DNA of 64,000 nt from a virus: positions 32,001-96,000 of the IMG/VR virus record IMGVR_UViG_3300035105_000276; one strand, written 5' to 3'. Within the stretch, counting starts at the first letter, position 1; every line of letters starts with the position of its first letter. The notes under the pieces are model-generated. The model saw only the letters and a program-made list of their open reading frames with translations, was not told where the DNA came from and did no database searches. This document shows positions 22,637 to 63,369 of the stretch, piece by piece. The translations under genes were made by a program, and so were the position numbers.

Positions 22637-22637
22637 A

Positions 22638-38247: not shown

Positions 38248-38652
38248 TCATGATTCCCTCTCCTTTTCACAAATACCCTGTTTGACATTTCGTACCATGG
38301 CCCATGCACAGAGATCCCGTTTCATATAAAATACCGGAATGCCCAGTTCCTCAGCTCTGGCTATCTCTTTTAACGTACCATCCGACTTTTCCCATCCAGG
38401 TAGCACCAGCACGCAGTCAGAAACCTCCAGCCAGGCCAGGGAGTACTCATAGAACTGCTGCACAGTGAACTCATCATCCGGACGGTCTGTGATAAACGTA
38501 TGGTCATGCCATGGGCAGAATGGGGCGAATCCCATAGAAAACAGCAGGGCACAGGCTTGCTGTCCGTGTCCGATATTGCGCAGAACATCGAGCACGTTAT
38601 CTGCCGAGTAACAGCCGGCTACGTATACCCGTGTTTTGTTAGCCATTGTCAT
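38248..38652 (-). CDS. DUF4406 / nucleoside deoxyribosyltransferase-like protein
   Basis: VYVAGCYS, PFCP, LPGWEKS.G..E..A..LGIPV. Confidence 0.75.
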   Translation of the reverse strand: MTMANKTRVYVAGCYSADNVLDVLRNIGHGQQACALLFSMGFAPFCPWHDHTFITDRPDDEFTVQQFYEYSLAWLEVSDCVLVLPGWEKSDGTLKEIARAEELGIPVFYMKRDLCAWAMVRNVKQGICEKERES

Positions 38653-42172: not shown

Positions 42173-43543
42173 TCAGGCCGGGGAGGAAACTTGGCTTGCA
42201 CCCTGAAGGGCATAAACAAAATTATATCCGTTCTGACGGGATATGAGTTTGCAATACTTCCAGGATATTCCCTGGACGGTTTCCGTATTAGTTTGGATAT
42301 TAAAGCTGCCGGACTTCCGGACAGCCACTCTGCCAATATACGTTCCTTTCTTCTTACCAGTAGGAACGATCGCTTTAACCATATCCCCGGTGGCAAAACC
42401 GTGAACTGTTTTCTGATCCATCAGGTATCCCCGGGGGAAGCCGTATTTGTCCACACGGGTTCTTTGATAACTGCCACGGCCCATGGCCTTTATCAGGAAC
42501 ACGTTTTGTTTCCAGCCGGATACCGAATCCACTTTGCCGGTGCAGGCAGCATCCAGACAATGGGTTTTGGGTATATCCAGCCGGGACCGGTTGTATTTGG
42601 TCCTGCCACCGGTTGAGCATTCTACCGGCAGGCCCAGGCCCCTGAATTCAAAAAAGATAGCGTTCCTGGTGGCGTTTACCGCTGCGGTTGATGTAAGGGA
42701 GGGTCTTTTACCTTCCAGGAACCTGGTGGCATTTTTGACCCGGACCTGATCTATCTTTTTTTGTGACCTGGATAAAAGGCGGATCCAGTCTGTCGGCTGC
42801 AGGTTCTTTTTTGATTCCTGATTACAGGCTTTACAGGCAATGGCCAGGTTACTGATCCGGTTTGATCCTTTATCCCCTTTTGAGGGATTGCGGGGGATGA
42901 AATGCTCAATTTCCAAGACCGGATCCTTGCTCAAGCCATTGCAATAAACACATTTTCTGCCATATCGTTCCAACAGATATTCCCGAAGCTCGTATCCGAA
43001 CAGGGTCCCTTGCTGATACTCAATCCCTGAAATATCCGGGTTCTGCAACTTCTGAGCATCGAACCGGACCCGTTCAAGGACAATGCCTGTGACCGGGCAG
43101 AGCCTTTGATACTTTTTCACCCAGGATAAAGTGTTATCCACCCGTGATCTGAGACTTGGCGGAAGCCACCCTTTGGGCCGGGTTCTGTTATCGAACCGGG
43201 GCTTTCTGTGCCAGAGGTTTGCGGTCCTTCGCCTTCTCCGGTAATTGGATCTTTGATCCAGTTTCTTCCGGATGGCAGCGCCCCGATGGGTCAGTTCCGA
43301 CAGGTGCAGTATCTGGGCATGACCGCCATCCTGTCTCACCACGGCCATGCCGGTTGTTTTGGCTCCGGGATCAATTTTAACATTAACCGGCTGCACATCA
43401 CTGTCCTCCCGGATCCGGTCAACGAGTCTAATGGTGAATGGAAACATATGGTGAACCCGGGCCCGGCCCTGTGCAAGAAACTTTCTTGCCCTGGCCGGAT
43501 GGCACGGCATCAACGGATCACCGTTCTTGTCAATTACAAACAC
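42173..43543 (-). CDS. iscB: IscB RNA-guided endonuclease
   Basis: PLMP domain (PLMPCHPARAR), RuvC-I IDPG, Arg-rich bridge helix, HNH (CVYC..EHFIP..N..C..CN), RuvC-III THCLDA. Start probably GTG 43543. Confidence 0.92.
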   Translation of the reverse strand: MFVIDKNGDPLMPCHPARARKFLAQGRARVHHMFPFTIRLVDRIREDSDVQPVNVKIDPGAKTTGMAVVRQDGGHAQILHLSELTHRGAAIRKKLDQRSNYRRRRRTANLWHRKPRFDNRTRPKGWLPPSLRSRVDNTLSWVKKYQRLCPVTGIVLERVRFDAQKLQNPDISGIEYQQGTLFGYELREYLLERYGRKCVYCNGLSKDPVLEIEHFIPRNPSKGDKGSNRISNLAIACKACNQESKKNLQPTDWIRLLSRSQKKIDQVRVKNATRFLEGKRPSLTSTAAVNATRNAIFFEFRGLGLPVECSTGGRTKYNRSRLDIPKTHCLDAACTGKVDSVSGWKQNVFLIKAMGRGSYQRTRVDKYGFPRGYLMDQKTVHGFATGDMVKAIVPTGKKKGTYIGRVAVRKSGSFNIQTNTETVQGISWKYCKLISRQNGYNFVYALQGASQVSSPA

Positions 43544-43544
43544 A

Positions 43545-43864
43545 CGGCTTACGCCGTTCTCCGCCGAAGCACCCATAGAGCACACGGCGGGTGACGGTTC
43601 AACCCTGGCATCGGTTGAACTCTCCCCTCGGGATTGTTGCACAGCGGCATTCTGCCCGGACCCGTTTCGTCCATACCCCTGTAGGTTTTCTGCAACCCGG
43701 GCTTCAAGTGGGCGGGACTGAGGAAGCATCCCGCCGTTGGTCTTTAGCTCTCTATGCAACTTTTAATGTTCTCCTTTTTTGTATTTGCCATTAAACTTTG
43801 AACATTTCCCTGGTCAACCATGGAGCCTTTTACAAGCTCCGGCCTTTAGGCCGGGGTAGTTGAC
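43545..43864 (-). ncRNA. omegaRNA / HEARO-type RNA of IscB element 1
   Basis: Conserved GTCAACTACCC...GTTGACCAG 5' stem upstream of iscB. Confidence 0.75.
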
Positions 43865-45271: not shown

Positions 45272-48200
45272 TTAACCACACGTGGTAAATCCACATTCTC
45301 TGCACATAGCACATCCGCCCTCATGAAACAAAGCCATCTGTTTACACTCCGGGCACTTTGCTCCGCGCACACCTTCAGATCCATCACCCTCGTCTAGTTC
45401 ATCAGGTAAAGCAGAAGGGCGATATTTCGCCAATACCCGCTTCAGCACGCTGGCAACATCCACCATGGTGTACGCACTTTTCTGAAGCTGCTCCAGTACC
45501 TCTTCCAAGGGTATTCCATACCGCAGCAGCATGCTGATCAGACGACAGGCCAGGTCCCAGTTACTGGTGCGCTCCTGCCATAGTGTCGGATTGAATTGGC
45601 CATCACCGTTTGCACCGGCTTCTACCGGCAACTTGGCAAATACCTCAATGGGCATCTCATCCCCATCTGTGGAGACAATCACATACAGTTTGGCCTTTTT
45701 CCAGAATACCCGGTACCTGGTGGCCTCCTCCACATCGAACAAGCCCCGTTTAATCAGAGTGCCCGGGGCGGGGAGGGGTAGTGCAGAAGTCTTCTGTTTT
45801 TCAGAAATAGCCCCCAGTACCCCTACCTTGCAGTTTTCACGGAATACAGTCACACCTTTCAGCCCCAGTTCATAAGCTTCCAGGTAAATTTTTGAAATCT
45901 CCTGTGGGGTTGTGTTCTCAGGCAGGTTCAAAGTAGAGCTGATGGACGCGTCCGTGTACTCCTGCAGCGCACTTTGCATACGCAGCCTATCCATAGGGTC
46001 AACCTCATTGGCTTCTACATAGCCCAACATAACTTTGGCTTCTTCCAAGGTTTTACCTTTAAACCGGTTGAAGTCCTCAAGCATGCGAACCACTGCCGGC
46101 CGGTGAATCATTTCATAGGTTTTTCCGTCAATTTTATTCTTCCGGGCGTATGCGAATTTGTATAAGGGTTCGCCCCCCGATGTAAGGTTTCCGGAAATAA
46201 TGCTGATGCTCCCGCACGGGCCCATAGTGTTGAAGGCTGTATTTGCCAAACCTGTATCCAATATCGCGTTGGTGAGGATGTCTCTGCATTCGTACCCGTC
46301 CACCAGGTTTGTGTAATAATTACATTCAACAAAGCGTTCCCTGGCCTCTCTTGGCTCAAGAGCCGGGGCTACACCGAATTTGGCCACCGCCTCCACACTG
46401 GCTTCAAGCTCAGCAATGGCTTTTCTTTTGGCCAGATCTGACAAAAACTGCACAGCTTCCGTGCTGCCGTAGGTCATACCCAGGGCTGCCAGAACATCAC
46501 CAATTCCTGTCATTTCAATGCCAATTCGCCGGCTGAACTCGTCCATCTCTCTCTGCGGCTGCAAAGGATGTCTCTCACGGTTCATTTCGGAGAACACATT
46601 TAAAATGTACACTGCCGTTTTGACATCTGTGAGAAATCTGGTGTAATCAAATGTACCATCAGGTGTGCTGTATTTTGTGAGTACCATACAGCCCAGAAGG
46701 CAATTAGCCCAGTTAGGCAGCATCTGTTCCCCACAGTTCAGAGTAGCGATACCATTAAACATACCCATTCCGCGTTTAGGGTCGGTAAAGCAATAAACTT
46801 TTTCCGCTATCTCACCTGTTCTTTCTACGCTTTTTACACGGACTATTTTAGAGCATCTAGCCTTAACCCAACCCTGTTTTACTTTAAGCCTTTTCGGAGA
46901 AAATCCACACTCCAGGCTTAGTATTGAAACACTATGTGCAGGTATCAGAAGTCTGTATGAGGTAGCACAGGCGTACTCTTTTTCCCCCCCTCTACCATCA
47001 GGCATAGGCTTAACACATTCTTCTTTCATAAGGCTTACAGAGGATTGACATCCCATAGTGCACAGTAATAACTGTATATCACGCAGAAACTGCTCATTTA
47101 TACTGGTTATGCCAATAGAGCTCCAAGTGCTTTCTCCCTTCTTTGCCTGGCAGCCGCCATCCGCATCACAGATACCTTCAAGCCAAGCTATCTTTGATGG
47201 GAGATCGTACTGAAATGGGATAAAGAGTTTATCCCAAAATTTATCCTTATCCAGAGTGACCATAACTTTACCCGAGGGGGGGTACGGCCCACACGAATGT
47301 GAATACTCCAGAGAATCCAGTAATTTAATTTTCTCATCATAAAGGGTTATCCCGTAATGAGGATACTTACCCTTTTTTAGAGAATAATATCCGTCACCCG
47401 CAAAAAAACCCAAAGTATACGCGTACTTTTTATCTACGGATTCCCCTTCTTTAATTATAGGGTAAGAAAACTTTATCAGAGGATCATTTTCCTGGAGAGA
47501 ACCAGCTTCCACAGACTTTTGCTGGTGCAGTGAGTTACCTGCCCTTAAACGAAACCCGTGGTAAAGAGTTGGTTTTAGGACTAAACCATTATTGAATTCT
47601 ACCCGCAGTACCTCTTGATTTTCACCAGTAACTCTTGGGATCACAGTAGTCCATTCAAATCCATTCCAGATTATTGTTTCTTGGCCCACACAATCCTGAA
47701 TTGGTTTATGGCCCTTATCGGTTAAGATTAGAGTATCCCCAGTGACACAAGGGTTAGAGCCACGGGGAGTTAACTTTTCATTGATATATGTACCAAACGT
47801 CCACCCTTCCACAGTATCCTTGAAAATCAGTCCAGGATCCCCACAGGCATGGGCAGCCTCCGCAATCATCTGAATTAACTCTCGTGCTTTTAGTACCTGG
47901 TACACTTTTTTAGGCAGACCCGCTTTTTCCCAGGCATCAAAGTCCCCATCCCACTTTTCGTTGTACACTTCCTTTCCTGTGGCTTCGATATCCGGGAACC
48001 ACAACTCGAAATACTTGTCGTCAAACACAGCCTTAATGAACTCAGAATTTACCATGAGAGAAAGGTTAGCCCCTTCAATGTTTGGTAAAGACCCAGTGAT
48101 TGCATCCCTCTCAAAAACCTGTTCCGGCTTGTGTTTTGACAAAATGAACTTCGGAGAATCCGGGTGGCGAATGTCCATGGACATCAACAAAGCACCTCTA

Positions 48201-48703
48201 CGTCCATTCTGGCCGATACTCCTCACACATTCGTTGAAGCTCGGCATAAAACTTACAGCTCCGGAGCTCTCTTTTGCCGCATTGTTCACCAGGGCGGTTT
48301 CGGGGCGCAGAATATTCAAAGATATCCCGGACCCTCCACGGTAGCTGAAAGTACGGGCCAAATGCTTCTGGGCATCAAAAATACCTTCAAGGCTATCTTC
48401 CAGAATCGGAGTGTAATAGCAGTTGGATAAACTGCATGTCCCGGTGGCCCCCAGACCGTATAAAATACTGCCAGCAGGTATGAATCCTCCGGACATAATC
48501 AAGGTATCCACGTAGTCGGTGATAGCGTGAAATCCAATCTTGTGCAGGTGGGCCCGGATCAACTTGGATACCCGGGTCCGTATATTCAACAAATATGTTT
48601 CCTGGCCATGGGTGTATTTATTCTGCACTATCATCTGAGCGAAATCGTCGCTCTCGTTCAAACTATCAAGCAGCAGGTTTCTTGTAATTACTGTTGTCTT
48701 CAT
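45272..48703 (-). CDS. nrdJ: Class II (B12-dependent) ribonucleotide reductase with intein
   Basis: LSNCY, GGSG, RRGA, GDPG, NP[intein]CGEQ, CLLG, SISSTLN, LKGVTVFR, and C-terminal CPEC..EGGC..C..CG. Confidence 0.9.
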   Translation of the reverse strand: MKTTVITRNLLLDSLNESDDFAQMIVQNKYTHGQETYLLNIRTRVSKLIRAHLHKIGFHAITDYVDTLIMSGGFIPAGSILYGLGATGTCSLSNCYYTPILEDSLEGIFDAQKHLARTFSYRGGSGISLNILRPETALVNNAAKESSGAVSFMPSFNECVRSIGQNGRRGALLMSMDIRHPDSPKFILSKHKPEQVFERDAITGSLPNIEGANLSLMVNSEFIKAVFDDKYFELWFPDIEATGKEVYNEKWDGDFDAWEKAGLPKKVYQVLKARELIQMIAEAAHACGDPGLIFKDTVEGWTFGTYINEKLTPRGSNPCVTGDTLILTDKGHKPIQDCVGQETIIWNGFEWTTVIPRVTGENQEVLRVEFNNGLVLKPTLYHGFRLRAGNSLHQQKSVEAGSLQENDPLIKFSYPIIKEGESVDKKYAYTLGFFAGDGYYSLKKGKYPHYGITLYDEKIKLLDSLEYSHSCGPYPPSGKVMVTLDKDKFWDKLFIPFQYDLPSKIAWLEGICDADGGCQAKKGESTWSSIGITSINEQFLRDIQLLLCTMGCQSSVSLMKEECVKPMPDGRGGEKEYACATSYRLLIPAHSVSILSLECGFSPKRLKVKQGWVKARCSKIVRVKSVERTGEIAEKVYCFTDPKRGMGMFNGIATLNCGEQMLPNWANCLLGCMVLTKYSTPDGTFDYTRFLTDVKTAVYILNVFSEMNRERHPLQPQREMDEFSRRIGIEMTGIGDVLAALGMTYGSTEAVQFLSDLAKRKAIAELEASVEAVAKFGVAPALEPREARERFVECNYYTNLVDGYECRDILTNAILDTGLANTAFNTMGPCGSISIISGNLTSGGEPLYKFAYARKNKIDGKTYEMIHRPAVVRMLEDFNRFKGKTLEEAKVMLGYVEANEVDPMDRLRMQSALQEYTDASISSTLNLPENTTPQEISKIYLEAYELGLKGVTVFRENCKVGVLGAISEKQKTSALPLPAPGTLIKRGLFDVEEATRYRVFWKKAKLYVIVSTDGDEMPIEVFAKLPVEAGANGDGQFNPTLWQERTSNWDLACRLISMLLRYGIPLEEVLEQLQKSAYTMVDVASVLKRVLAKYRPSALPDELDEGDGSEGVRGAKCPECKQMALFHEGGCAMCRECGFTTCG
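46736..47749 (-). mobile_element. Intein with LAGLIDADG homing endonuclease (338 aa)
   Basis: Starts CVTGDT, ends GIATLN/C. LGFFAGDG and LEGICDADG blocks. Confidence 0.9.
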
Positions 48704-50195: not shown

Positions 50196-50231
50196 ACATC
50201 TAATCCTTTATGTCTTTTTCAACAATCCGGC

Positions 50232-50699
50232 CTAATGGCCTAAAACATCCACAATCCTTTGCCGGGCAATCTTGGAGTACCGAATGCACTTCCAAGGATT
50301 CCTCCCGGTATCCTCCTTGATCTTATTTAAGATATGGAGTCTTTTCTTATGAATGTGAAGTAGCCTTTTTTCCTTTATGGTATAGACACCCTTTATCTGC
50401 CGAATTGTCAGCTCGCTGTCACTTCTGATAATAGCTACATTCTTCGGATTTTTCAAAATGCCGGACCCCAGTATCCAACCCAGCAATTTATTCACAGACA
50501 TCGACTCCGCTGTGTTACAGGTTTGGCGGAACTTGGCTACTAAAGGGAAACGGGTATCCTCTTTCACCAGCTCCTTGTCGTTTTTAAATACTTTGAAACT
50601 GCCGTAAGCGGCGGCGTCTACAGCACCATTCCTGTAGCAGCCACCGTCTACGTAACATATGTACTCAGTTATGGAAGTATCTGTTGCACTATACTCCAT
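50232..50699 (-). CDS. RNase H (HI family)
   Basis: YVDGGC, TCNTAE, IRSDSEL..QI.G.Y. Confidence 0.75.
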   Translation of the reverse strand: MEYSATDTSITEYICYVDGGCYRNGAVDAAAYGSFKVFKNDKELVKEDTRFPLVAKFRQTCNTAESMSVNKLLGWILGSGILKNPKNVAIIRSDSELTIRQIKGVYTIKEKRLLHIHKKRLHILNKIKEDTGRNPWKCIRYSKIARQRIVDVLGH

Positions 50700-50701
50700 A
50701 C

Positions 50702-52411
50702 CTACCCCTCCCATTTTTGAAAATCGGAAGGATCATCAATAATGCTGGTGATACGCCGCCCAAAATCCTCCTGAGAGGTTGCATGGATAGGGTTACCCTC
50801 GTCACTCAGAAAAACCCAGCCTTCGTCTTCGTAATAATAAACTTCAGCTCTAACTCCACCGTGCAACAGTACTCTGGTCCGTACAGGTACAAGCATCCCA
50901 TTCCATACATTTACGGGTGCATCAGGCTCAAGCTCAGAAGTTTGTTCATTTTCGGACTCGTCTTCTGCTTCTGGTATGGCATGTTTTACATCCAGAATGT
51001 GAAACCCTTCAGCCAGCCAATACACCAGCCTACGTACCCCATCTGACATGATAGAGTCTTCAGGTCTGCGTACCATTACCTCGTACCCCAAGGCTTCACC
51101 CCCCACGACAAGATGTAGCACACCCCCCGGAGAGGGTATAACTGTTAAAGCATTATGCTTGCCATTGTCATTAATGGTGTAAACCGTAGTTCCCGGGGAT
51201 ACCAGAACAAGCTGTCTAACACCGTTTATCTCTGCACGTAAAAACACAGAATTTTCCTGGCAGCCCTTTACCATCAAATCAATAGTTTCTCTAGATAGTA
51301 CTTTGTATTTTGGAAACTGCTTTGCATATTCCAACAGCTGAAATTTTACCTCATTCAGGTGTTTTATATCTTCCTTCCTCTCTTCTTCCAGGCTGGCCAC
51401 TGTACGCATCAGATGAGCCTTTTCCTGTTTCAGCTTTTCCTTGAACGGATCAGCCATTGTGCTCACAAAGTTTCTGGCATCAAATCCCGCCTTCCACTTC
51501 ATCTGGCATAAATCCTTCCCGGGCACAGTGGTATCCAGGAACAGACTCATAGCGGCTTTGTTGTTTTCATCGTTCAACGGCTGGTGCCGTACCCAGAAAT
51601 CAACCAGAGAACTCACATATGCAGCCACATTTTCCCCAGTGTACCCAAGAGCTCTGGCGGTACAAGGTTCCTGAACAGCTTCTTCCTGCTCAAATAAAGC
51701 TTCATCTATGTATTCTCTGACAACTGCAGGGTAGTCAGTATACATACTCACTAAATACAGTACTGGCAAAGCAAATACATGCCACAGACCCAGGCTCATT
51801 CTGCAATCAATGTACAGAGCAGGGGTATTGTCTATAGTCGGGCAGTAATCCCCGTTTTCGTCCCACTCAATTTTACGCAGCAAATCTGAACCCAGGTCGT
51901 TTCTGAACTCCATGTTATCCACACAACCCACCAGCACATCAATTTTTACCCCTTCTCCAAGCAGTTCGTATAAATGGAAAAGATTCGTAACCCGGTCTTT
52001 AATAGTTGTGATGCGCACAAAATACCGGTCCATCATATCCTGCTGTAAGGCTTCAACTTTAGACATGCCCAGGTTTGTCACTTTGTGAAACTGGGTGCCA
52101 ATGTTCTGAATCTCCACATCGTCATCATCAATTACCGTGATATTCCTGGCCCCCATGGCCACCAGATTTTTCACAACCGGGGATCCTATCCCACCGGCCC
52201 CCACCACTACAAAATGCATGGTCTGCAATCTGCGCAAGGGTATGGCATCAGAGAACCGGGTTGTAATCTGCTCCTGCACATTAACTCCAACGGTTTCCCG
52301 GCTCTCCGTTGCTTTTTGAACCACCCAGTCAGCGTACAGCTCCCTTTTTTCTTCAAAAGACTGCGGAGCTGCCTGTGAATTGGCTTGGTCTCCTACTATA
52401 GCTTCAAACAT
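50702..52411 (-). CDS. E1-like ThiF-family Ubl-activating enzyme with C-terminal extension
   Basis: VVGAGGIGS, DDDDVE.QN..Q, KVEAL, CVDN..R, IDCRM, and candidate catalytic Cys in EPCT. Confidence 0.88.
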   Translation of the reverse strand: MFEAIVGDQANSQAAPQSFEEKRELYADWVVQKATESRETVGVNVQEQITTRFSDAIPLRRLQTMHFVVVGAGGIGSPVVKNLVAMGARNITVIDDDDVEIQNIGTQFHKVTNLGMSKVEALQQDMMDRYFVRITTIKDRVTNLFHLYELLGEGVKIDVLVGCVDNMEFRNDLGSDLLRKIEWDENGDYCPTIDNTPALYIDCRMSLGLWHVFALPVLYLVSMYTDYPAVVREYIDEALFEQEEAVQEPCTARALGYTGENVAAYVSSLVDFWVRHQPLNDENNKAAMSLFLDTTVPGKDLCQMKWKAGFDARNFVSTMADPFKEKLKQEKAHLMRTVASLEEERKEDIKHLNEVKFQLLEYAKQFPKYKVLSRETIDLMVKGCQENSVFLRAEINGVRQLVLVSPGTTVYTINDNGKHNALTVIPSPGGVLHLVVGGEALGYEVMVRRPEDSIMSDGVRRLVYWLAEGFHILDVKHAIPEAEDESENEQTSELEPDAPVNVWNGMLVPVRTRVLLHGGVRAEVYYYEDEGWVFLSDEGNPIHATSQEDFGRRITSIIDDPSDFQKWEG

Positions 52412-52452
52412 ATTTGGTACCTCTTGATTAAGGTTTAAGGTGTCTCTCTAAC

Positions 52453-54150
52453 TTACTTTGGAAAATTGTGCCCAATTACAACTTTTTCTTTCCCTGATAC
52501 TTTACCATTTTTCCCATCTGCTTTTTCTTCCTTAGTAAACAGGTACTCTGTCCATTCTTCCTGGGGCACCAGGTCAACCACTTCGGCGGACAGCCACTCC
52601 CATAAGCTCATGCACCCCTCAGGTATTAAGTTATCCGGCCATTGCCCTGTACTGTTTGCTTCTGCTTCAATGGTTTCCCAGAAAATGGTGTCCACCAATA
52701 AACTTGTCTCATTAATCAGAACTCTCACGTTATCCAGCACAATGGGTAGCACTGTACTCAAGGGGGGCGCGTCTTCCCCATACCCATTATCCAGGCACCC
52801 CATATAAAATGCATATGAAATAGATGAGATGAAATCCCCCTGAGTTATTGAGTTAAAAAACCCAATACCCCTCAAATCATGAAGCAAGCTTTTAATCTCC
52901 TCATCCTCGGGATTGGCTCTCAGGTATTCGGTAAGTTCATCCAGCCGCCATGCCAGGTAATCGTCATCGGCTTCCATTTTACTTTCATAGTTAGACAGCT
53001 CGGCTTCCAGAAGATCTGTTACAAAAGTAACTGCCGCTTCCTGAATATCCTGCTCTCTCTCAACACTTCTATCAGCCGGTTTGTTTTCAATGGCCGCCTG
53101 CCGTCCCTGGGGGGTTGACAAATCAGAGCTACGCCAGTCTTCTCCCCAGCATGGGCCCCACATATCGTCACGGTCATAATCAAGGTAGTCCGGGACATCC
53201 CTTAAATTGTTACCGGCCCTGGGGTCACCCTGGTTATTAAGGTAGTGAGACCACCCCCTGTTAGCCGCCCTGTGCTGCCCCCAGTTAAGGGGGTTGTTAT
53301 GAAAAAATACAGATACTGGCTTTTTAATCAATTTGTCAATCTGCTCATCCAGGGTTTTCTTCTCTGCCCGGGTGAGCTCAGTTTCTTTGTTCACGCCATC
53401 TCCAGTGTAAATACCTACCGGAATATCATCAATCCTGAAAAACACCGGGTAATACATAACCAGGCTGGCGAACACCTGTTTGGCTTTGTTAAATACCAGG
53501 AAAATACGGTAGTCATTCTGGTATCCCAGCTCTGTTTTCTTTTCCTGCTGGTTTTTGTCTGTGGAAGACCAAAACACGCCCAGGTTTCCATGACTGTGCC
53601 CATGGTGCAGGTTGGCAGCAACCCCATCCGGGAATTTTTCAGGCCAGTTCTCTTTCAGGTAATTTGAGTACCTGGCCACATCCTCTAAGTCCAGATCCAC
53701 ATGAGCCTGAGTGGCATCCTGGGCTGCAATAAACATGTCGTACATCAGAAAATGCCGGCTCTTTCCCTGCAGGGGCTGTCCCAGAAGCATGAAAGCACAT
53801 TCCCCGGTTTTATCCGCGGCTTTGTCCACCACATACTGAACTTTTTTCAGTACCTTGGGAGTCAGAAATACGGCAGGTGTTTTCGGATCCTTTAAAGGGT
53901 CTTCCACCTTGGTACCATTTTTAGAAGTTTCACCTGAGTTGCAACCCAGCAGTAGGTAATCACTACCAGTGAAAGCAGCATCTCCCTCCCAATTGGGGAA
54001 ATCCGGAGTGAACGGGTAAAACGGAACCTCAGCCTGAGTTGTAGTCTGGGATGTGGTAATACCCATGTCTACAGTGTTTACCGGCTGCGCATTAATCTGC
54101 TGTGCCGTATTAAAATGATTTGAAACAATCTGACGAATACGAGAAGTCAT
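52453..54150 (-). CDS. JAB/MPN+ (JAMM) metallopeptidase with long extension
   Basis: GE(CAF)...HSHGNLGVFWSSTD matches E...HxH-x7-S-x2-D. Confidence 0.85.
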   Translation of the reverse strand: MTSRIRQIVSNHFNTAQQINAQPVNTVDMGITTSQTTTQAEVPFYPFTPDFPNWEGDAAFTGSDYLLLGCNSGETSKNGTKVEDPLKDPKTPAVFLTPKVLKKVQYVVDKAADKTGECAFMLLGQPLQGKSRHFLMYDMFIAAQDATQAHVDLDLEDVARYSNYLKENWPEKFPDGVAANLHHGHSHGNLGVFWSSTDKNQQEKKTELGYQNDYRIFLVFNKAKQVFASLVMYYPVFFRIDDIPVGIYTGDGVNKETELTRAEKKTLDEQIDKLIKKPVSVFFHNNPLNWGQHRAANRGWSHYLNNQGDPRAGNNLRDVPDYLDYDRDDMWGPCWGEDWRSSDLSTPQGRQAAIENKPADRSVEREQDIQEAAVTFVTDLLEAELSNYESKMEADDDYLAWRLDELTEYLRANPEDEEIKSLLHDLRGIGFFNSITQGDFISSISYAFYMGCLDNGYGEDAPPLSTVLPIVLDNVRVLINETSLLVDTIFWETIEAEANSTGQWPDNLIPEGCMSLWEWLSAEVVDLVPQEEWTEYLFTKEEKADGKNGKVSGKEKVVIGHNFPK

Positions 54151-54161
54151 GGGTACGTCTC

Positions 54162-55694
54162 CTATAAAAGTTTGGCAAGCAGTTTGCCTACTATTTTGTT
54201 TGAAGTTTTCGAAGATGCCGGCAGCACAAAATCCAGGTTCTTAATGCATTCGGTGTACTCAGGCATCACGGTAGTTGGGTGCAAATCTTTATCAGTGATA
54301 TGGGGCTGTCTAGCCTTCCACAGATACTGATCTAAATAATACTTATTGAGCAGCAACCCCGATTCAGATTTTTCTATAGCCGGGGCCACCATGTCACGCA
54401 GCAAAAGGCCCATGGCATGGTCTCTCCCAATAATACGCAGGTCATCATTGATACAGCACTGAAATAATAAGGTTGCATACAACGTTTTGAATGTAGTAAG
54501 CACCTGGAACCATGCTGCCAGATAGGGTATTACAAGGGCTTTCCAGTGTCTTGCATGTGTACCTACTTGCGCCTTATTGATAAAGAAAGAATCCAGTGCA
54601 ATCTCATTCCAAATGTCGTCTGTGGTACTGCAGCCGTTAGCCCGTATAACACCATGCTGCATTTTTACAGCGACTGCCGTCAGCCCGGACAATATCGGAA
54701 ATGCTAAGCCGTCATGTCGAGGTATGTGCTTTGTGGTCAAAAGCTCCAGCTTTGCCCACTCATCATTAATTTCAGGTGACCACAATTCACCTATAGTATC
54801 CGGCATTTTCTCAGTCATAGGTGCTTTCAGGAAATTGTACGTTACCTGGGTCAGGTTGATTAGTGAGGTAATGTACTGACTTTCAGTAATCCCTGACTCA
54901 GCCATCAAGTTGGACAGTATATCTATCATGCTGGCACTTGAACGAGTGGGCACGCATCTCCACGGGGTGAATCCACCGTATGCGTCGTTTACGTTATAGG
55001 TTCTCATCCAGTCCAGCGCCAGGCGTATTCCGCGTTTAAAATCACCTATTACTTTTACCTTGTTTCCGGTCAGGTACTCTCTGAAAGGGTTATCCATTCC
55101 GGTACAAATATTATTAAACATTCGGCCAGGGGTCTCAGAAGAGGCATGCGGATGGGTGGTTGCTGTCAAAAACTCCCGTAGATCGTCTTTACGGTAGTTC
55201 AGCGTGTTGCTCAGCACCAGTTCAGGGGGTGAAGCAACCGCAGGATCTCCTTCATCTTTTACAATGCACACATTCGGAGTTGTGTTTTTGAAGGCGTAAT
55301 ACCCTTCCCGGGAGAACGTCATCTCATATCTCAGGCAAGGTTCCGTAATATAAAAAGGATGAGTCCCGTTATACACCCAGATCATGGGAGCATTCGTGGT
55401 TTCTAAAACAGACTGTTCACTCGAATTCAAAGCGGGTACTGTCAGCCTTGAAAACTCCGGATATTTTGGCTTTACCACTGTGTCCAGCCAGTCAACTCCC
55501 AGGGTTATGTCTTTTTCAGACCAGTTGGAAATCTCCTGGTATTTTTTTATCAGAGAGTTCAGCTGCTTTTGCATTCTTTGGATGTTACGCTCCAAAGCCG
55601 ATGCTTCTCCCTGGGAACTGCTGATCTTCAAATATTGGTTAAGAACTCGCTCCTGTAGTGAAGCAGGGTCATAGTTCAGGTGAGTTATTGTCAT
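54162..55694 (-). CDS. Prokaryotic E2-like (UBC-fold) protein
   Basis: HPHAS....NNICTG (cf. E2 HPN..IC), downstream YN..DAY, and position between Ubl and JAB. Confidence 0.6.
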   Translation of the reverse strand: MTITHLNYDPASLQERVLNQYLKISSSQGEASALERNIQRMQKQLNSLIKKYQEISNWSEKDITLGVDWLDTVVKPKYPEFSRLTVPALNSSEQSVLETTNAPMIWVYNGTHPFYITEPCLRYEMTFSREGYYAFKNTTPNVCIVKDEGDPAVASPPELVLSNTLNYRKDDLREFLTATTHPHASSETPGRMFNNICTGMDNPFREYLTGNKVKVIGDFKRGIRLALDWMRTYNVNDAYGGFTPWRCVPTRSSASMIDILSNLMAESGITESQYITSLINLTQVTYNFLKAPMTEKMPDTIGELWSPEINDEWAKLELLTTKHIPRHDGLAFPILSGLTAVAVKMQHGVIRANGCSTTDDIWNEIALDSFFINKAQVGTHARHWKALVIPYLAAWFQVLTTFKTLYATLLFQCCINDDLRIIGRDHAMGLLLRDMVAPAIEKSESGLLLNKYYLDQYLWKARQPHITDKDLHPTTVMPEYTECIKNLDFVLPASSKTSNKIVGKLLAKLL

Positions 55695-57493
55695 TCGTCC
55701 TCCTTATATAAGTTGGGAAACATGTAGGTATTTTTCAGGATTGAGCCCAAGTAGGTTGATGAAACATTGATACTGGCGGATATCACGTAAAACATGTTTG
55801 AAGGGTGGTTAACATTTTGCCCAGCTGCCGGCTCAGTATCCAGGATAGAGTATATAGACTCCATCCTGGATGCTGCGAATGTCAGTACATGTGGATAAGT
55901 ATCTATCACCCAGTGAGAAGGTGCAGACCCTTTGGAGCCAATTGTGTGTGTCAAGCACTGAGATAGCAAACCCTGCCCAATCTCTGTGGACAACGATAAA
56001 ACAGCGTCAATCTCCACAGGGTACTGAATCAGGTAATCGTTTTTCTTTACCCCGTAAGAGTCCAGTATAAAATTTGTGGTGTTTTTATCTGCTGGAAAGC
56101 AAATATCCAGAGTCAGGGGGGACGCATGCTTGATAAAGAACGGCAGGGCAGGTTTTGCCGGATGCATCAATGTAATTACCCCCAGTATCTCCGGGAAATT
56201 CCGTAAAACATTATCATTCTTCAGCCGTGCGTACTTAGTTAAAGCATCATACCCCCATAACCGGGTACCCTGACCTTGAAAGCTTATACCAGGGCTTGCA
56301 AATTCTGAGACACAATCCTCGAAAATAAAGGGTTTGAACTCTCCTAACATTTCCGGAGTTTCTTTTTGCAAATATGATACCGATGTTTTCTTTTCTTTCA
56401 AGCACTCCCGGATGTGAGATTCAATGAAAATTGGGAGATGGTTGCTGGTATCGGTTAAAATATGAACTTTATTAAAAAGAACTTCGGACATCCTTGTTTT
56501 GGGTGGGAAACTTGAACGGTTGAAAACATCGGTGTAATGGTTTCGTACCGCTGGTGCAAAAGAATATACCAGATTGAGCATCCGGTGCACTGCGGATACG
56601 GCGAAAGCATACATGGTGGCAAAAGATTCCCGGGCTGACAGTTCTGGGTCAGGTACGGATAATATCCTTGCCATAATGTCTATACAGAAAAATGCATTGA
56701 CATCAGCACCCAGCTTATCTTCATCAGACGGGAACAGCTGATCTGCAATAGAGCAGAATGTTTCCAGATTGTATATTCTTGACAACAGAACGTACTTATA
56801 GAATTCCCGGATATGGAATATAAAGTACCCTGGGTCTTTAGACTCAAATATGCTGGCCTGGTAGTTTTTACAGGACAAAGAGGTGTCTACCCATTGAAAG
56901 AAGATCCCCATGTGGCCGAGGGTGTAGTTGTTTTTTTGGTGCAGTGTTGTAAAAAGTACAAGCTGCCGGATATGCAAGTTTAAATCGTTCCTGGAATGCA
57001 GGGCTGTATCAGCCAGGGACTCAGCAAATTGAGTACCTGAAATTAAATCAGAAGTTTCCTTGTCCTTCATAGCCCGGTACTTTAAAACTTTTCGATGGGC
57101 TTCCATCCTCAATATGGTTTGAATGTAGTTGAGAATACATTCATAAACGGGTGTTTTTTCCAATTTATCAAACTCTGAAGAGAAGTTCGTATAGGCCAAT
57201 TCAGACTCAGAGCATGCAAGGCGGGTTGTACCTATACCATAGGTAATGGTGGGGAGCAGGGTGTCGAAGGTCTCCTGGACGAATTCTTTGGGAGGCAGAG
57301 CAGGCTTCAATCTTGAGGATAGGAGCTGCAGTATGGATAACCCGATAGTTTCACGGGTAGCCTTTAGCATATCCCACTCCGAGTGTAATAACAGATGAGT
57401 CAGGCTGCTCCCGGGTGAATACTTGGGGTCGTGCTGCAGCCCATACTCCAATGCCGATTCCTGGTCGGTGGATGGGGCAAAATCTAAGAGCAT
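55691..57493 (-). CDS. Uncharacterised 600-aa protein in the Ubl operon
   Basis: Long ORF with AGGAG RBS, ATGA-coupled to the E2-like gene. Confidence 0.75.
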   Translation of the reverse strand: MLLDFAPSTDQESALEYGLQHDPKYSPGSSLTHLLLHSEWDMLKATRETIGLSILQLLSSRLKPALPPKEFVQETFDTLLPTITYGIGTTRLACSESELAYTNFSSEFDKLEKTPVYECILNYIQTILRMEAHRKVLKYRAMKDKETSDLISGTQFAESLADTALHSRNDLNLHIRQLVLFTTLHQKNNYTLGHMGIFFQWVDTSLSCKNYQASIFESKDPGYFIFHIREFYKYVLLSRIYNLETFCSIADQLFPSDEDKLGADVNAFFCIDIMARILSVPDPELSARESFATMYAFAVSAVHRMLNLVYSFAPAVRNHYTDVFNRSSFPPKTRMSEVLFNKVHILTDTSNHLPIFIESHIRECLKEKKTSVSYLQKETPEMLGEFKPFIFEDCVSEFASPGISFQGQGTRLWGYDALTKYARLKNDNVLRNFPEILGVITLMHPAKPALPFFIKHASPLTLDICFPADKNTTNFILDSYGVKKNDYLIQYPVEIDAVLSLSTEIGQGLLSQCLTHTIGSKGSAPSHWVIDTYPHVLTFAASRMESIYSILDTEPAAGQNVNHPSNMFYVISASINVSSTYLGSILKNTYMFPNLYKEDE

Positions 57494-57519
57494 TTGAGGT
57501 AAATCTCCTTTGTAGGGGT

Positions 57520-57561
57520 TAAAAAAAATCCCGGGAACACCTGATAGGCATTCCCGGGATT
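57520..57561 (-). terminator. Strong intrinsic terminator between Ubl and the enzyme genes
   Basis: ATCCCGGGAATGCCT-ATC-AGGTGTTCCCGGGAT followed by a long T-run. Confidence 0.75.
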
Positions 57562-57718
57562 ACTAGAGCCTTAAATTCCGGGAAAATAGCTCCACAGTAT
57601 AGGAGCAAAGCATCCGGAAAGCGGGCCAGGGCGGAGTGAGGCACTTATCATTTTTCTGCATTACTCCACCCGGCGAGGGCTCAGAGGCGTCAGGTAAAAG
57701 TTCTGGCACCGGCAGGCG

Positions 57719-57949
57719 TTAAACGCAGCCGGACGCAGTCTTTTTCTGGGCCAGGGTGATTGTGTCGCCGTCTTCGACGGCGGCATTCAGGTTGGCGGCC
57801 TCGCCATTAACCTCGACGGTCACGTTGCTCAAGCTGGTAATGCCTTCAACCTCTTCGAGGTATTCACCCACGGACAGGCCGTCCTGGATGTAACGGGTTT
57901 CGGGGGTTGAGGACGGGGATGCTGCGAATCTGACTTTCGAAAGTGCCAT
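57719..57949 (-). CDS. Ubiquitin-like beta-grasp protein (76 aa, ThiS/MoaD-like) ending ..TASG-CV
   Basis: SVGEYL, VEVNG, V.DGDTITL and a near-terminal Gly. AAGGAGG RBS before ATG 57949. Confidence 0.85.
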   Translation of the reverse strand: MALSKVRFAASPSSTPETRYIQDGLSVGEYLEEVEGITSLSNVTVEVNGEAANLNAAVEDGDTITLAQKKTASGCV

Positions 57950-58062
57950 TATGGCCTCCTTAAATAAATGGTCGCCGGCGTTCATGTGGCCGGCATGGTT
58001 AAAAGGTTGGTCGGGGACGTCCCGGGACCAATGATCAATCAATAAAAACCCTTAATCGATCT

Positions 58063-58101
58063 CTTCTAACAAGAAATGTGCGGTTTTTTGAATTTGTGAA
58101 G
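58063..58101 (-). promoter_or_regulatory. Overlapping class A and class B promoter of the Ubl operon
   Basis: CTTCAC-12-CCGCACAT overlapping TTCAAAA-17-TAGAAG. Confidence 0.55.
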
Positions 58102-58109
58102 AGTGGGTT

Positions 58110-60900
58110 TCAACGAAAAGTGGCTAGTTTGTGCATTTTTTATAAAATATCCGATTTTTAAAGGTTTGGGAGCATATAATAGGGTAGAGTTTTGGGTATT
58201 TGAGGTTTTGGGTAAAATTTTTAGTAAGGTGTGGCTAATTTCTCTGTTTGTTGTACCTAACTATTTGTGAGGTGAGGCTAACTTTATAAAATATTGGTGA
58301 AATCTTGGAAAAATTACGACTGTAGAAGTGTAAAAATCGATTGGTAAAACAGGGCAAAATAGGGCAAAATACTATCACCAGGGTTAAAGGCTTGCCTGGA
58401 GAGGGTTTTTGCGCTTAGTAGTAGTGATACTGAATTAGGATTTTCTGAAAAGGGCACGGGCTGCTGGTTTTCCGGTAAAGGGTTTTCGAGACTTTTAAGG
58501 GAGAATGTCGTTTCTAAACGACAGTTTTATGTGGTGTGCACTTTAAGATTAGATAAGTAAAATATGTGCGAAGTAAACAGAGAGTGTGGTATTGCATTTT
58601 CGAAGATCGGGAAGATCTACAGAAAACTTTTGAGTTGGGATGTGCCGGAGGGCAAAAGGGGCTTCGGTAGATCTTAGCGATAAAGTTAGGTTTAACTAAT
58701 AACGTAGTTATGCAGCTCTTGGTGGTTGCATGAATTGGATTCATTTATAAGAATTGGATTCAGTTTACCTTCAACAGTAGATGATAGCGAGGTAAAAAAT
58801 GGAATATTCTGTAAAAGTGTGTTAGAACCATGTGAAATGATCGATTTTTTGAGATTTCACGGAATATATGACGGTGGTTTTTTACTGATTTTGGTTGCCT
58901 GTTTAAAGAGTGGCTGAAAACCCGTGCAGACACTGGATAGGCACTTGCACATCTACTGAAACTTTAAATCCTTGAGAATGCAACAGGGACGGGGATTTCA
59001 TTAATTTGTTCAAATTTAAGGAAAAAGTAAGTAGAATTTGGTAGTAAAACTCCAAAATCGAGCACATCTACAGAAATGTCGTTTTTAGCCATAAAATAGC
59101 TGTGGTATAGCTGTGTAAAAATGTGATGTTCCTGGAGGGTCGATCACATCTACAGCAAAAGTACGATTGGTATAAGATTTAGACCTTTCAAGACCGTTAA
59201 CCCCCAAGGGCTTCAGTAGATCTTAGCGATTTTTTCTGGTTTTTTGGATTTGTGAAACGATTTTTGTTTCACACGCAAAAAATTCATATCTTAAGATCAT
59301 AGCGAAAAAATGGTGATAGTGCTGCTGGGCTGACTCTAAAGAGTAACTGCCTGATTTGACAGGGGGAAAACGTGGATATGCCATGGTGAGCTGTAGGTAA
59401 ATACACTCTCACCACCCCTTGAAAATTCTTTTCTTAAAAAGTGTAAGACTAAGAATTTGAGAAAATAACTGTAAAAGTGTAAAACCCTTGGTATCTAATG
59501 CTTTAAAGTATTTGGTATTTGGAATTTTAAGTAAGAACGAGCCACCCCTTGTGCCAATTCTTATCTTAAGAAGTTAGCAGTGACCTTAAAACAGGCTTGA
59601 AACCCACATCAGCACTGGCTGTAATTCTTTCTTAAGATCTCAGCGATTTTTAGCCCAAACACATAGACTATTACTGGGGATCCCCCTAGGGCCCTATATA
59701 TCTAAGTAGGTTTAAGAGGGTTAGTATATATTATGTATATTAAAATGATTTTTTATATAATAATACCCTAAGAGGACGTAGTACATCACATATTCTTCTA
59801 AAGTCCCTTACGCGTTTATAGTCTATGATTTTTGGCCAAAAATCGGTGAGAACTTAAGAAAAAAACTTAGCCAGGCATAGCAAGGGTTTTGGTAGGGGTC
59901 GCTAAGATCTTAAGAAAGCTTTTACCGCCTTTTTTGAGTACCCCCTGATTCACGAAGCATTAAAGCTACCATATCCCTTTTAATATCAAAGCTTTATCAC
60001 ATCTTAAGATAAGAATTTGAAAAGCCAAATTTCACATCTTAAGAATTGATTAAAAAAGATCCAGTGATAGTCCTCCAGTAAATCCGCCAGGCTGTGGCCT
60101 TTTCCCAGAAAAAGCCTCAAAAAATGACCTAAAAGTGTTTTAAAATTCAGCATACCCCCACCCCCTATCTGGAACCCCACCACCCGGGCATCTCACCCTC
60201 CTCTCATTTTTTTAATCTGTTCTTGCAACCCAAAGTACTGGTGATAGTTTTCGTAGGTATTGACATATTCTGATGCAACCTCCTATTTTTATTGAAGATA
60301 CCTCTCTCTTTAGATCTTAGCGGCCCTATTTCCCAAATTCCCCTAACCATTTGATTCTTAAACAGATTGGCTCTACTTACTCCCCCAAAATAGTAAAATT
60401 TTACAAACAGACCCTCTCGCAAATCTAAAAAAACCCACTGGTGAAAACCTCAAAATATGATCTTTATTTTGAGGTTTTCACCAAATATCACATTCTCTTA
60501 TGTAGATCTTCCCTTTCAAATTCCGTGCCTGGCTATGTAAAAATTCATCAAAAGCTTTCTAAGCCCTCTAAGATCTTAAGAAATGGTTTTTAAGCCCTTT
60601 TCAGGGATGTGATAGTGCAAAGATACGTAATAAAATCCATCTTTTACACTCGTTCATTTCACGTTTGGTATTGGACCAACTCAATATTTTTTAATCGCAT
60701 ACCCCCCTTACTACATCCATAATCTTTGAAACCACACTCCATACCTGCCATTTCACCCATAAGGGTTTTTACCCACAGGGACGTATTCTTTGGCTTTTCC
60801 TCCCTTTAAGCACTTAAGTAATACCTCTGTAAAACCCCAATACACAAGGATATGCTAAAAAAATATCACTGAATTTCCATAGATCTTACCGATATTTTTA
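58110..60900. repeat. Non-coding, origin-like region with iteron-like repeats and a central inverted repeat
   Basis: AGATCTTAGCGA-like units and CTTAAG cores; ~44-bp inverted arms (59628-59671, 59818-59861) around an AT-rich core; base-skew switch. Confidence 0.6.
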
Positions 60901-61854: not shown

Positions 61855-63138
61855 TTAGTGTCCATATGTGTATCCATCAGCTGCATGTAGAAGTCTGCAA
61901 CACCTCCAGCCAACCCCCTGTACAATCTCGGCCCTGGTTTTAATATTGAAACTCCCGCTTGCCCTAACGGCAACTCTACCAACGTAACAACCAATTTTCT
62001 TACCAGTTGTTACAACAGCTTGTACTATGTCTCCAGTTTGGAAACCGTGCACTTTTTTAACTGTAGATTTTGATCCAGTACGTGGAAATCCATACTTGTC
62101 AGACCGGCACATCTGCCTGCTGCCATGTCCCATGGCCTGCACCTGTAAAACTTGCTTATGCACCTGGAATACTGTGTCGGGTGTGCTTCTGCCAACACAG
62201 GCAGCATCTAGCCAGTGTGTTTTGGGTAAATCTCTGGTGGTTCGATTGAACTTGGTTAAGCCTCCGGACCCTACTTCAACTGGGTAACCATACTTCATCA
62301 GCCTATGATACAGGTGCCAGCGTGTAGCGTTTACAGCTGCTGCTTCTTTTAATGGTGCTTTAGCCTTTCTTAATATTTTGGCCAGAAGCTCAGGTTTGTT
62401 CTGCAGAAACTGCTCAACCGGCTGGTTGTTCTTCAACTGGTTACACCTATTGCAGGCCAATGTGAGATTGCTCACCCTGTCAGACCCACCTCTGGACCTC
62501 GGCACTATGTGCTCAATTTCCAATGGAACATTTGTTTCCCCACAATAAGCACATGTTCTGCCCCATTTTTTTAACAGGTACTCGCGCACTTCGTAGCCGG
62601 CAAGTACTCCCTGCTGGTACTGCACACCTGATATCTCTGGGTCCTGCATAAGTTGAGTATCAAACCTTACCAGCTCCATTGAGATACTTGTGATGTTGCA
62701 GTATTTCTGTAGTCGGCTTACCCATGTCTCAATATTATGCACACGGCTTTTTAGAGATGGGGGCAGCCAGCCTTTCGGACGCGAACGGTTTTCAAATCTG
62801 GGCTCTCTGTACCTGGTTTTACGAGCTCTCCTACTCCTGCGGCTGGCTCTTCTGGAGTCCAAAAGCTTTTTTATGCGTTGCTCCCTGTGGGTCAACTCCA
62901 TAGCAAAAACAATCTCACCTGAGTCTTTTAGTACAACTATGCCAGTTGTTCTGCTACCGGGATCAATCTTTACTCTCAGTGGTTCTGGCTGCACCTCTGA
63001 GTGAGCCTCTTTCAGTATAATAGTGAACGGATACTTCCTGAACACAGCAGCTTTCTGCTGGTTCAACATTAGTCTGGCCTCCGCCGGGTGCACCGGTTCT
63101 AAAGGCTTTTTGTTTGTATCAATTACAAATACTTTCAA
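61855..63138 (-). CDS. iscB: IscB RNA-guided endonuclease
   Basis: PLEPVHPAEAR, IDPGS, RRASRRSRR, CAYC..EHIVPRS.GGSDRVSNLTLAC..CN, THWLDA. TTG start at 63138 after GGAGG. Confidence 0.93.
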   Translation of the reverse strand: MKVFVIDTNKKPLEPVHPAEARLMLNQQKAAVFRKYPFTIILKEAHSEVQPEPLRVKIDPGSRTTGIVVLKDSGEIVFAMELTHREQRIKKLLDSRRASRRSRRARKTRYREPRFENRSRPKGWLPPSLKSRVHNIETWVSRLQKYCNITSISMELVRFDTQLMQDPEISGVQYQQGVLAGYEVREYLLKKWGRTCAYCGETNVPLEIEHIVPRSRGGSDRVSNLTLACNRCNQLKNNQPVEQFLQNKPELLAKILRKAKAPLKEAAAVNATRWHLYHRLMKYGYPVEVGSGGLTKFNRTTRDLPKTHWLDAACVGRSTPDTVFQVHKQVLQVQAMGHGSRQMCRSDKYGFPRTGSKSTVKKVHGFQTGDIVQAVVTTGKKIGCYVGRVAVRASGSFNIKTRAEIVQGVGWRCCRLLHAADGYTYGH

Positions 63139-63149
63139 ATGTAAAACCT

Positions 63150-63369
63150 CCCTGTTAAAGGGTAATGTTTGCCTCGCCAAAGTTAGCACCAGGTTTGACG
63201 TAAGTAGCACTGGCTTAACCCCTTAGACCTGTTTAACCACTTACCGTAGAGCAGCAGGCTGGCAAGCACCTGCTGGTACCTATTTCTGGTGTAACGTAGT
63301 GCATGTGCACTAAGGCTGGTCAGCGTGGGGCTTTTGCAAGCCCACATGGTTTAGCTGTGGGTAGCTGAC
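63150..63369 (-). ncRNA. omegaRNA of IscB element 2
   Basis: Typical GACCAGCCTTAGT..ACTACGTT and GGCGAGGCAAACATTACC blocks. Confidence 0.75.

Follow-up and report, generated by a model that had tools for sequence, protein, structure and literature searches.

Organization of the gene cassette

The DNA analysed here is a stretch of 64,000 nucleotides (nt) from a virus, bases 32001-96000 of the 127-kb record IMGVR_UViG_3300035105_000276, which is judged 71% complete; this whole stretch is referred to as the window. Its minus strand carries five neighbouring genes whose products include a ubiquitin-like protein (Ubl), a JAMM peptidase, an E1-like enzyme and a candidate E2, and which probably form a phage-encoded protein conjugation pathway. 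The Ubl gene (57719-57949, ATG at 57949) encodes 76 amino acids (aa) and ends in KKTASGCV. It is followed by gene A (55691-57493, 600 aa), gene B (54162-55694, 510 aa, containing HPH...ICTG), the gene of a JAMM/MPN+ metallopeptidase designated JAB (52453-54150, 565 aa, containing HGHSHGNLGVFWSSTD) and the E1 gene (50702-52411, 569 aa), in which GAGGIG, DDDDVEIQNIGTQ and EPCT are present and CxxC is absent. Genes A and B overlap by 4 nt, and the gaps from B to JAB and from JAB to E1 measure 11 and 41 nt.

All five open reading frames (ORFs), described as co-oriented in an initial annotation made from the sequence alone, were found on the minus strand in the ORF list. They represent more than a chance array, since relatives of four of the five products occur, with the order kept, in other phage contigs, and since ThiS, JAMM and ThiF were confirmed by Pfam or profile searches. 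The phage-type promoter that had been placed in front of them was not recovered: a sigma-70-type scan of the minus strand, in which the phage's own promoter type was not modelled, gave no site upstream of the Ubl gene.

The Ubl, the JAMM peptidase and the E1-like enzyme

The Ubl matches the Pfam family ThiS with an E-value of 7.9e-5 (23.6 bits against a cut-off of 22.5). Its 76-aa start is consistent with an AAGGAGG located seven bases 5' of the ATG, and the aligned N-termini of the relatives agree. The alignment of the window protein with eight relatives from other phage contigs has only two invariant columns, one of which is the C-terminal Gly74 (9/9). Both the fold and the adenylatable conserved Gly of a beta-grasp modifier are therefore indicated by sequence, through the ThiS match above the cut-off and the invariance of Gly74. 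Behind this Gly come zero to seven unconserved residues, namely CV in the window, none in locus L003 and up to TARLAAA in locus L011. Such a Gly with a variable tail is characteristic of a modifier that is synthesised in a capped precursor form. The proposal that JAB trims the Ubl fits the invariant Gly and the variable tails in this respect, while the cleavage itself is a predicted step.

A terminator-like hairpin is situated between the Ubl gene and the enzyme genes from A onward (57519-57561, minus strand), with a 16-bp stem, a 3-nt loop and a following run of 8 T. The 225-nt spacer between the Ubl gene and gene A has a folding z of -5.25, and none of 200 shuffles folds as well. Strong hairpins 3' of the Ubl gene were also observed in five of the seven relatives folded, with a U-rich tail, judged by eye, in three to four. 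The strong hairpin and T-run behind the Ubl gene suggest that the Ubl may be more abundant than the enzymes. A 12-nt motif that precedes gene A in the relatives occurs 8 times in the window, where 9.6 matches are expected, and shows no enrichment.

For JAB, an exhaustive HMMER search gave 321 relatives. The residues E117, Q144, H185, H187, S195 and D198 are invariant across 102 aligned members, and the family profile matches PSMD14/Rpn11 (4.7e-10) and CSN5 (about 2e-4). The E...HxH-x7-S-xx-D motif and the MPN fold of JAMM peptidases are accordingly represented by the invariant motif and the Rpn11 profile match. Pfam Prok-JAB is matched by 21 of the 102 family members; the window protein itself has no Pfam match. 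Its catalytic domain covers approximately residues 80-280 and is followed by a C-terminal extension without assigned function. The window protein gave no match to the PADLOC defence JAB models at E-values up to 0.1, no phmmer match among PDB sequences, and no tblastn match among 50,697 phage records at E <= 1e-3.

The E1-like enzyme matches Pfam ThiF over residues 58-173 (6e-23) and the PADLOC E1-E2 models in the Rossmann part only (8e-15). A profile built from nine family members retrieved UBA5 as the best solved structure (4.9e-16), followed by UBA6, MccB, MoeB and Uba4. The invariant residues include the GxGGIG glycines, G162, D165, R170, N171, D202, R204 and C250; the ThiF and UBA5 matches together with the invariant D165, R170 and N171 identify an adenylation domain of the ThiF/E1 type (GxGxxG and D..DN...R..N). 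C250, located in EPCT, is the only invariant Cys (9/9), and solved E1s align at profile positions 50-188 only. One adenylation domain is detectable, at about residues 50-300, and residues 300-569 match nothing. The NCBIfam matches are all to ThiF and MoeB models and fall well short of the equivalog cut-offs (63 bits, for example, where 275 are required). A search resting on two peptide patterns found no relatives in the 185,579 species-representative prokaryotic genomes of GTDB. Taken by their sequences, the identities of the Ubl, the JAMM peptidase and the E1 are well supported, which bears out the initial annotation of a 76-aa beta-grasp Ubl, a 565-aa JAMM peptidase and a 569-aa ThiF/E1 lacking a CxxC zinc site.

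Protein B as a candidate E2

Protein B consists of an N-terminal helix, a predicted UBC/UEV/RWD-like domain (residues 71-250 approximately; window 54945-55484) and a C-terminal half made up of helices. Seven other loci have a positional homologue, which aligns with it across an N-terminal domain of about 160-200 residues, and H181, H183, C197, G199, W229, D237, Y239 and P249 are invariant in all eight sequences. A model of this domain was built on the compact homologue from locus L026, not on the window protein (pLDDT 61.8, pTM 0.61), and displays an N-terminal helix, a sheet, a loop with HPH and the Cys, and then two long helices. It was aligned to 48,161 representative chains and the top 50 rows were judged by title; 23 of them are titled E2, UEV or RWD, all with Z of 4.0-5.6, among them Tsg101, Vps23, UFC1 (4.6), Ube2W, UbcH5 and Ubc9. 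Further scores are 4.4 for Cap2, 4.4 for a bacterial E1-E2-Ubl complex and 4.2 for BubB. About 16 more of the top 50 chains, from kinetochore proteins, FANCL and Listerin, are presumably RWD domains as well. A second structural comparison gave the TSG101 UEV domain at Z 5.5 (root-mean-square deviation 3.7 over 106 residues) and CdnG-E2 at Z 4.7.

C197 follows H181-P-H183 and, in the model, has the last strands before it and the first long helix after it, which is the position of the catalytic Cys in E2s. The spacing from HPH to Cys is 13 residues, and the homologue in locus L008 has HPN-x7-C; in canonical E2s the spacing from HPN to Cys is shorter than 13 residues. The presence of HPN instead of HPH in L008 argues that the second His is not a metal ligand. 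Moreover, comparison of the B family by hhalign with the HP[HN]..C.G proteins of other phage Ubl loci gave an E-value of 2e-5 and a probability of 77%, with the match covering the motif and the next helix.

Sequence searches with B were otherwise unproductive. No phmmer match was found among PDB sequences, and four distant homologues have no UQ_con or Prok-E2 match in Pfam at E-values up to 1. The ESM Atlas offered nothing usable (scores below 0.9, with the Atlas's own models at pLDDT 0.30). An index of 5.8 billion proteins returned B itself only, to which the profile added one 218-aa fragment of 98% identity. The BFVD row of highest probability (0.28), a Type II CBASS E2, was dismissed as too weak to count. 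It is probable, though not proven, that the fold of B is of the UBC/UEV/RWD type and carries a Cys where E2s have theirs, as judged from the model and the invariant residues. The assignment of the 510-aa protein as an E2 is hence moderately supported: the invariant HPH..C.G and the UEV/RWD/E2-like model at modest Z speak for the original proposal, and the lack of any sequence match to E2 families speaks against it. Because the family is invisible to sequence searches, it may have escaped similarity-based surveys.

Gene A and the RNase H-like neighbour

Searches of Pfam, PHROG and NCBIfam gave no family for gene A. All seven loci examined have a positional homologue, with weak and mostly C-terminal similarity; the invariant residues are Tyr and Pro only, and there are no conserved catalytic residues. 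The 4-nt overlap of A and B occurs in three of the seven cassettes compared (the window, L003 and L022). Leads from the ESM Atlas point to HEAT/ARM-like helical repeats only, all with scores below 0.9. A relation to gp75 of phage crAss001 was considered and rejected (hhalign E 0.44). The product of gene A is probably an alpha-helical partner of B, such as an adaptor, a scaffold or a substrate, and we assign it a non-catalytic role with low confidence.

On the other side of the cassette, an RNase H-like gene (50232-50714, minus strand; weak Pfam RNase_H match, E 0.015) overlaps the E1 stop by 13 nt. Its homologue was found beside E1 or within the cassette in 20 of 27 related loci, and in L011, L012 and L014 it is inserted between gene B and the JAB gene (7749-8216). 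It is a constant neighbour, which could be either a member of the system or a mere neighbour from the replication module.

Distribution among phages

A total of 7 IMG/VR loci and 20 metagenome loci were recovered by searching with the E1 profile. The JAB gene is directly upstream of E1 in all 17 loci that have at least 1.3 kb of upstream sequence, and the complete order Ubl-A-B-JAB-E1 recurs in eight loci (L002, L003, L011, L012, L014, L019, L022 and L026). Several of the related contigs share further genes with the window phage; the C-terminal beta' subunit of RNA polymerase in L022, for instance, is 48% identical.

Five distant IMG/VR loci found through the E1 profile (L004-L008) contain an adjacent set of a JAMM protein (192-315 aa), a short E1 (213-226 aa), a ThiS-type Ubl ending in GG or GGR and a large His/Cys protein with the motif HPH-x8-C-x-G, or HPN-x7-C-x-G in L008. 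In L004-L006 the Ubl is 136 aa long with two ThiS stretches and may be a di-Ubl. No close relatives were obtained when IMG/VR was scanned with the single proteins B, E1 and JAB, and megablast of the cassette against the 50,697 phage records gave no match.

Searching the same records with E1 by tblastn matched 45 phage records, mostly crAss-like; sets of this kind are widespread in phages, crAss001 among them. In crAss001, gp79 (L029 2298-2975) has a Ubl-like N-terminus up to KKIKSG near residue 90, followed by a 135-aa extension; a cut by the crAss001 JAMM after this Gly, if it occurs, would release a second polypeptide. The genes gp78, gp77 and gp76 carry HSH..CTG, the JAMM motif and ThiF, respectively. 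The order of a crAss-type set in the replication module (Ubl-like protein, His/Cys-motif protein, JAMM and E1) is the same as in the window. The relation is supported for E1 and gp76 (profile 1.7e-18, tblastn 2e-8) and for JAB and gp77 (hhalign 90.7% probability, E 1.3e-6), weak for the Ubl profile and gp79 (hhalign E 0.019), and restricted to the motif for B and gp78 (hhalign E 0.02). These four crAss001 genes, gp79 to gp76, are annotated only as hypothetical, 'metalloprotease domain' or 'thiamine biosynthesis protein ThiF'.

Profile searches also revealed adjoining E1-like and JAMM genes in Salmonella phage Arash (gp246c and gp247c) and in Vibrio phage D69. No clear Ubl was found at the Arash locus (L042; OQ632216.1, 176281-179301), where gp248c contains a DGNMCVG stretch. 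GenBank flags gp246c and gp248c as 'structural protein'. According to the available text of the Arash paper (PMC10585845), this label reflects detection by liquid chromatography-mass spectrometry in purified particles, though the numbering of its table seems offset from that in GenBank; ThiF and ubiquitin are not mentioned in that text.

Genomic context of the cassette

The neighbours scanned with Pfam include an intein-bearing ribonucleotide reductase, ThyX, the RNase H-like protein, helicases and RtcB. As the initial annotation had stated, families of thiamine, molybdopterin or tRNA-thiolation metabolism are absent among the 28 window proteins scanned, a set that covers the small ORFs in part. 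Neither a rhodanese, nor a cysteine desulfurase, nor a sulfur-accepting biosynthetic enzyme was found among the same 28 proteins.

A fused beta-beta'(N-terminal) multisubunit RNA polymerase of 1471 aa is encoded at window 11152-15567 on the plus strand, with Rpb2 domain 6 at 4e-41 and Rpb1 domain 2 at 1e-21. Its nearest deposited relatives are gp206 of Arash and proteins of the Vibrio phages D69, D181 and D148, with 33% identity over 97-100% of the length. These relatives place the phage in an Arash-like lineage with genomes of about 180 kb, and since the polymerase is a bacterial-type beta-beta' fusion, the phage is not crAss-like. The 1143-aa ribonucleotide reductase (45272-48703, minus strand) contains an interrupting insert of the LAGLIDADG type (residues 504-568 match Pfam LAGLIDADG_3), which is probably an intein. 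Two RRXRR-HNH proteins (42173-43759 and 61855-63210, both minus strand, RRXRR E about 1e-71 each) are likely homing-type endonucleases. The same early-gene arm contains, all on the minus strand, an RtcB RNA ligase (21470-22735, 5e-100), a ThyX thymidylate synthase (41080-41781, 3e-39) and a nucleoside 2-deoxyribosyltransferase-like protein (38248-38652). The region at window 50200-58200 was present, at half or more of the sampled words, in 11 DNA runs labelled oil field metagenome, six of which may be the source sample.

Proposed pathway and alternative interpretations

We interpret the cassette as a phage-encoded ubiquitin-like protein conjugation pathway that would be expressed with replication and nucleotide-metabolism genes, and give this reading a probability of about 60%. 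The 76-aa Ubl would be made as a precursor, from which the JAMM peptidase would remove Cys-Val and expose Gly74. The single-domain E1, probably a homodimer of the UBA5/MoeB type, would adenylate Gly74 and may hold the Ubl on Cys250. The Ubl would next be handed to Cys197 of the E2-like protein B, and B together with its translationally coupled partner A, likely an adaptor or scaffold, would attach it to proteins of the host or the phage. A second task of the JAMM peptidase may be the removal of these tags. In this scheme the trimming, the thioesters, the transfer and the conjugation are inferred, as are the part played by A, the targets and what the pathway is for.

A number of observations weigh against this interpretation, most of them concerning B. 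The usable model of its domain comes from the L026 homologue and not from the window protein, whose full-length AlphaFold model was discarded at pLDDT 37, and in the L026 model the very loop with the HPH motif (residues 83-103) has a pLDDT below 50. All fold scores are below Z 7-8, the tool's noise guide for unrelated models, and Foldseek against the PDB and BFVD gave nothing at E <= 0.001. At the sequence level, eight members searched against the Pfam E2 families at E-values up to 5 matched neither UQ_con nor Prok-E2, profile searches of the PDB at E-values up to 10 returned no E2 chain, and no E2 match was found in PADLOC or NCBIfam. The invariant H, H, C and D of B could equally form a metal site. 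As for the E1, no catalytic-Cys domain is recognisable and Thr takes the place of the Arg in the usual N..RQ motif. Finally, the 22 sequencing runs returned for the cassette include no RNA run.

One rival reading is a pathway with two enzymes, in which B is a non-catalytic UEV/RWD-like or metal-binding adaptor and E1 transfers the Ubl directly to targets or only to itself. The best fold matches of B are indeed with UEV and RWD domains, which are non-catalytic, and not with active E2s, and its invariant H, H, C and D could bind zinc. We nevertheless regard such a pathway as quite unlikely, because the model puts the invariant Cys between the sheet and the long helix, the site of the Cys in E2s, and because the HPN of the L008 homologue resembles canonical E2s and speaks against the second His as a metal ligand. 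The main alternative is that the cassette produces a sulfur carrier. E1 would then adenylate the trimmed Ubl for conversion to a thiocarboxylate, which supplies sulfur for the modification of a small molecule, a nucleotide, tRNA or DNA, and B would be a persulfide or sulfur-transfer protein instead of an E2. ThiS is the sole Pfam match of the Ubl, the NCBIfam matches of E1 are to ThiF and MoeB models, and the cassette is surrounded by nucleotide-metabolism genes (ribonucleotide reductase, ThyX and the nucleoside deoxyribosyltransferase-like gene). Sulfur carriers with a two-residue tail that is trimmed by a JAMM protease are known from QbsE/QbsD and CysO/Mec+. Yet the ThiF and MoeB matches stay far under the equivalog cut-offs, the E1 has no rhodanese domain, and neither the acceptor enzyme expected beside a ThiS/MoaD-type carrier nor a desulfurase or sulfur-insertion enzyme is encoded among the 28 scanned proteins, although host enzymes could supply the sulfur. 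The UBC/UEV/RWD-like model of B also disagrees with sulfur transfer, and both the single Gly, with its tails of 0-7 residues, and the putative di-Ubl forms of related loci resemble conjugation systems, so that a sulfur carrier appears unlikely to us.

A role in counter-defence alone is a further possibility, in which the JAMM peptidase strips Bil-type tags of the host while the phage Ubl and E1 act as decoys competing with the host pathway. According to the available text of PMC11601596, tail proteins of phages are tagged by Bil systems, which include JAB peptidases, and the phage JAMM could reverse such tags. A decoy would leave unexplained why Ubl, E1 and B are strictly conserved together, with their catalytic-type residues intact, in at least three phage lineages, and the PADLOC defence JAB models do not recognise the window JAB; we therefore hold this explanation to be very improbable. 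Conjugation by the phage's own enzymes is the interpretation that we retain.

Comparison with known conjugation systems

JAB/JAMM peptidases of bacterial operons cut Ubl pre-proteins and expose the Gly, as is set out in the available text of PMC11601596. Among the bacterial systems, BilABCD, as far as it is described there and in the accessible part of PMC10557695, is similar to the phage set in having separate Ubl, E2, JAB and E1 genes in an equal order, no recognised E3, and a Ubl that requires a free C-terminal Gly. The separate genes of one operon are evident from the ORF layout of the window, with the E2 assignment moderately supported. The two systems differ in that BilABCD is encoded by the host and the present set by a phage. 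They differ also in the E1, which in the same accounts of BilABCD has the layout IAD-AAD-CYS, whereas the phage E1 has a single adenylation domain, with one ThiF stretch at residues 58-173 of 569 aa, and an unmatched C-terminal half. The E2-like protein of the phage, moreover, is 510 aa long and undetectable by sequence, and the 600-aa gene A is an extra, coupled gene. In function and gene order Bil comes nearest to the phage set, but its E1 has a different architecture.

Type I Bub (6E.1: BubAB, BubCD and BubE; PMC11601596), in the available description, shares with the phage set a small UBA5-like E1 and, given the roles predicted for JAB and B, a JAB that trims the precursor so that the Gly becomes exposed and a divergent E2 without the canonical C-terminal helices of UBC. 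According to the same description it has Ubl-E2 and JAB-E1 fusions, a Ser-type E2, an E1 lacking the Cys and a DUF6527 protease, whereas the phage genes are unfused and E1 and B each have an invariant Cys. No DUF6527 was found in Pfam scans of the five cassette proteins. Compared with the window, the crAss-like set belongs to another phage lineage and has shorter proteins and a Ubl extension of 135 aa, and a separate gene A was not seen there.

The UFM1 pathway comprises pro-UFM1, UBA5, UFC1 and UfSP; a single Gly lies under a two-residue cap, which is trimmed by a Cys protease. The phage set resembles it in that UBA5 is the best solved relative of E1, UFC1 is among the fold matches of B, and the window Ubl has a single Gly capped by two residues like pro-UFM1. 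The trimming protease differs, being a JAMM peptidase in the phage, and neither the Ubl nor B showed a relation to UFM1 or UFC1 at the sequence level. Type II CBASS has no Ubl, as the C-terminus of the target itself is activated, and its E1 and E2 are fused. Its Cap2 and Cap3 combine E1 and E2 activities with a JAB, as is predicted for the phage, which in contrast possesses its own Ubl, unfused genes and neither a cyclase nor an effector gene.

E1-like genes have been noted in viruses of Asgard archaea in the available text of a preprint (10.1101/2021.07.29.454249). No description of a phage Ubl-E2-JAB-E1 set was found in the literature searched, from which subscription journals and the Bub and Bil supplements were outside the scope.

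Implications for phage biology

To our knowledge, studies of ubiquitin-type conjugation in prokaryotes have so far dealt with it as a function of cells, most recently in anti-phage defence (Bil, Bub and CBASS type II). New in the present study are a set borne by a phage, a candidate E2-like family unseen by sequence methods and an extra coupled gene. The window adds a second host lineage for the cassette, with much longer enzymes and with a fifth gene, coupled to the candidate E2, that could be a substrate selector. Since related sets exist in cultured phages, in crAss001 of Bacteroides and, in a reduced form, in Arash of Salmonella, direct tests are possible.

We tentatively suggest, as a possibility rather than an expectation, that a ubiquitin-type machinery which is ancient and specific to viruses is common to at least two deep phage lineages, the crAss-like phages and the large phages with bacterial-type RNA polymerase. 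It would have its own E2 family and, in the lineage of the window phage, a dedicated adaptor A, and would covalently tag host or phage proteins during replication in a mirror image of Bil. If this is true, bacterial viruses also write protein tags with a complete and conserved kit, which they may use in host takeover, in the control of replication or in counter-defence.

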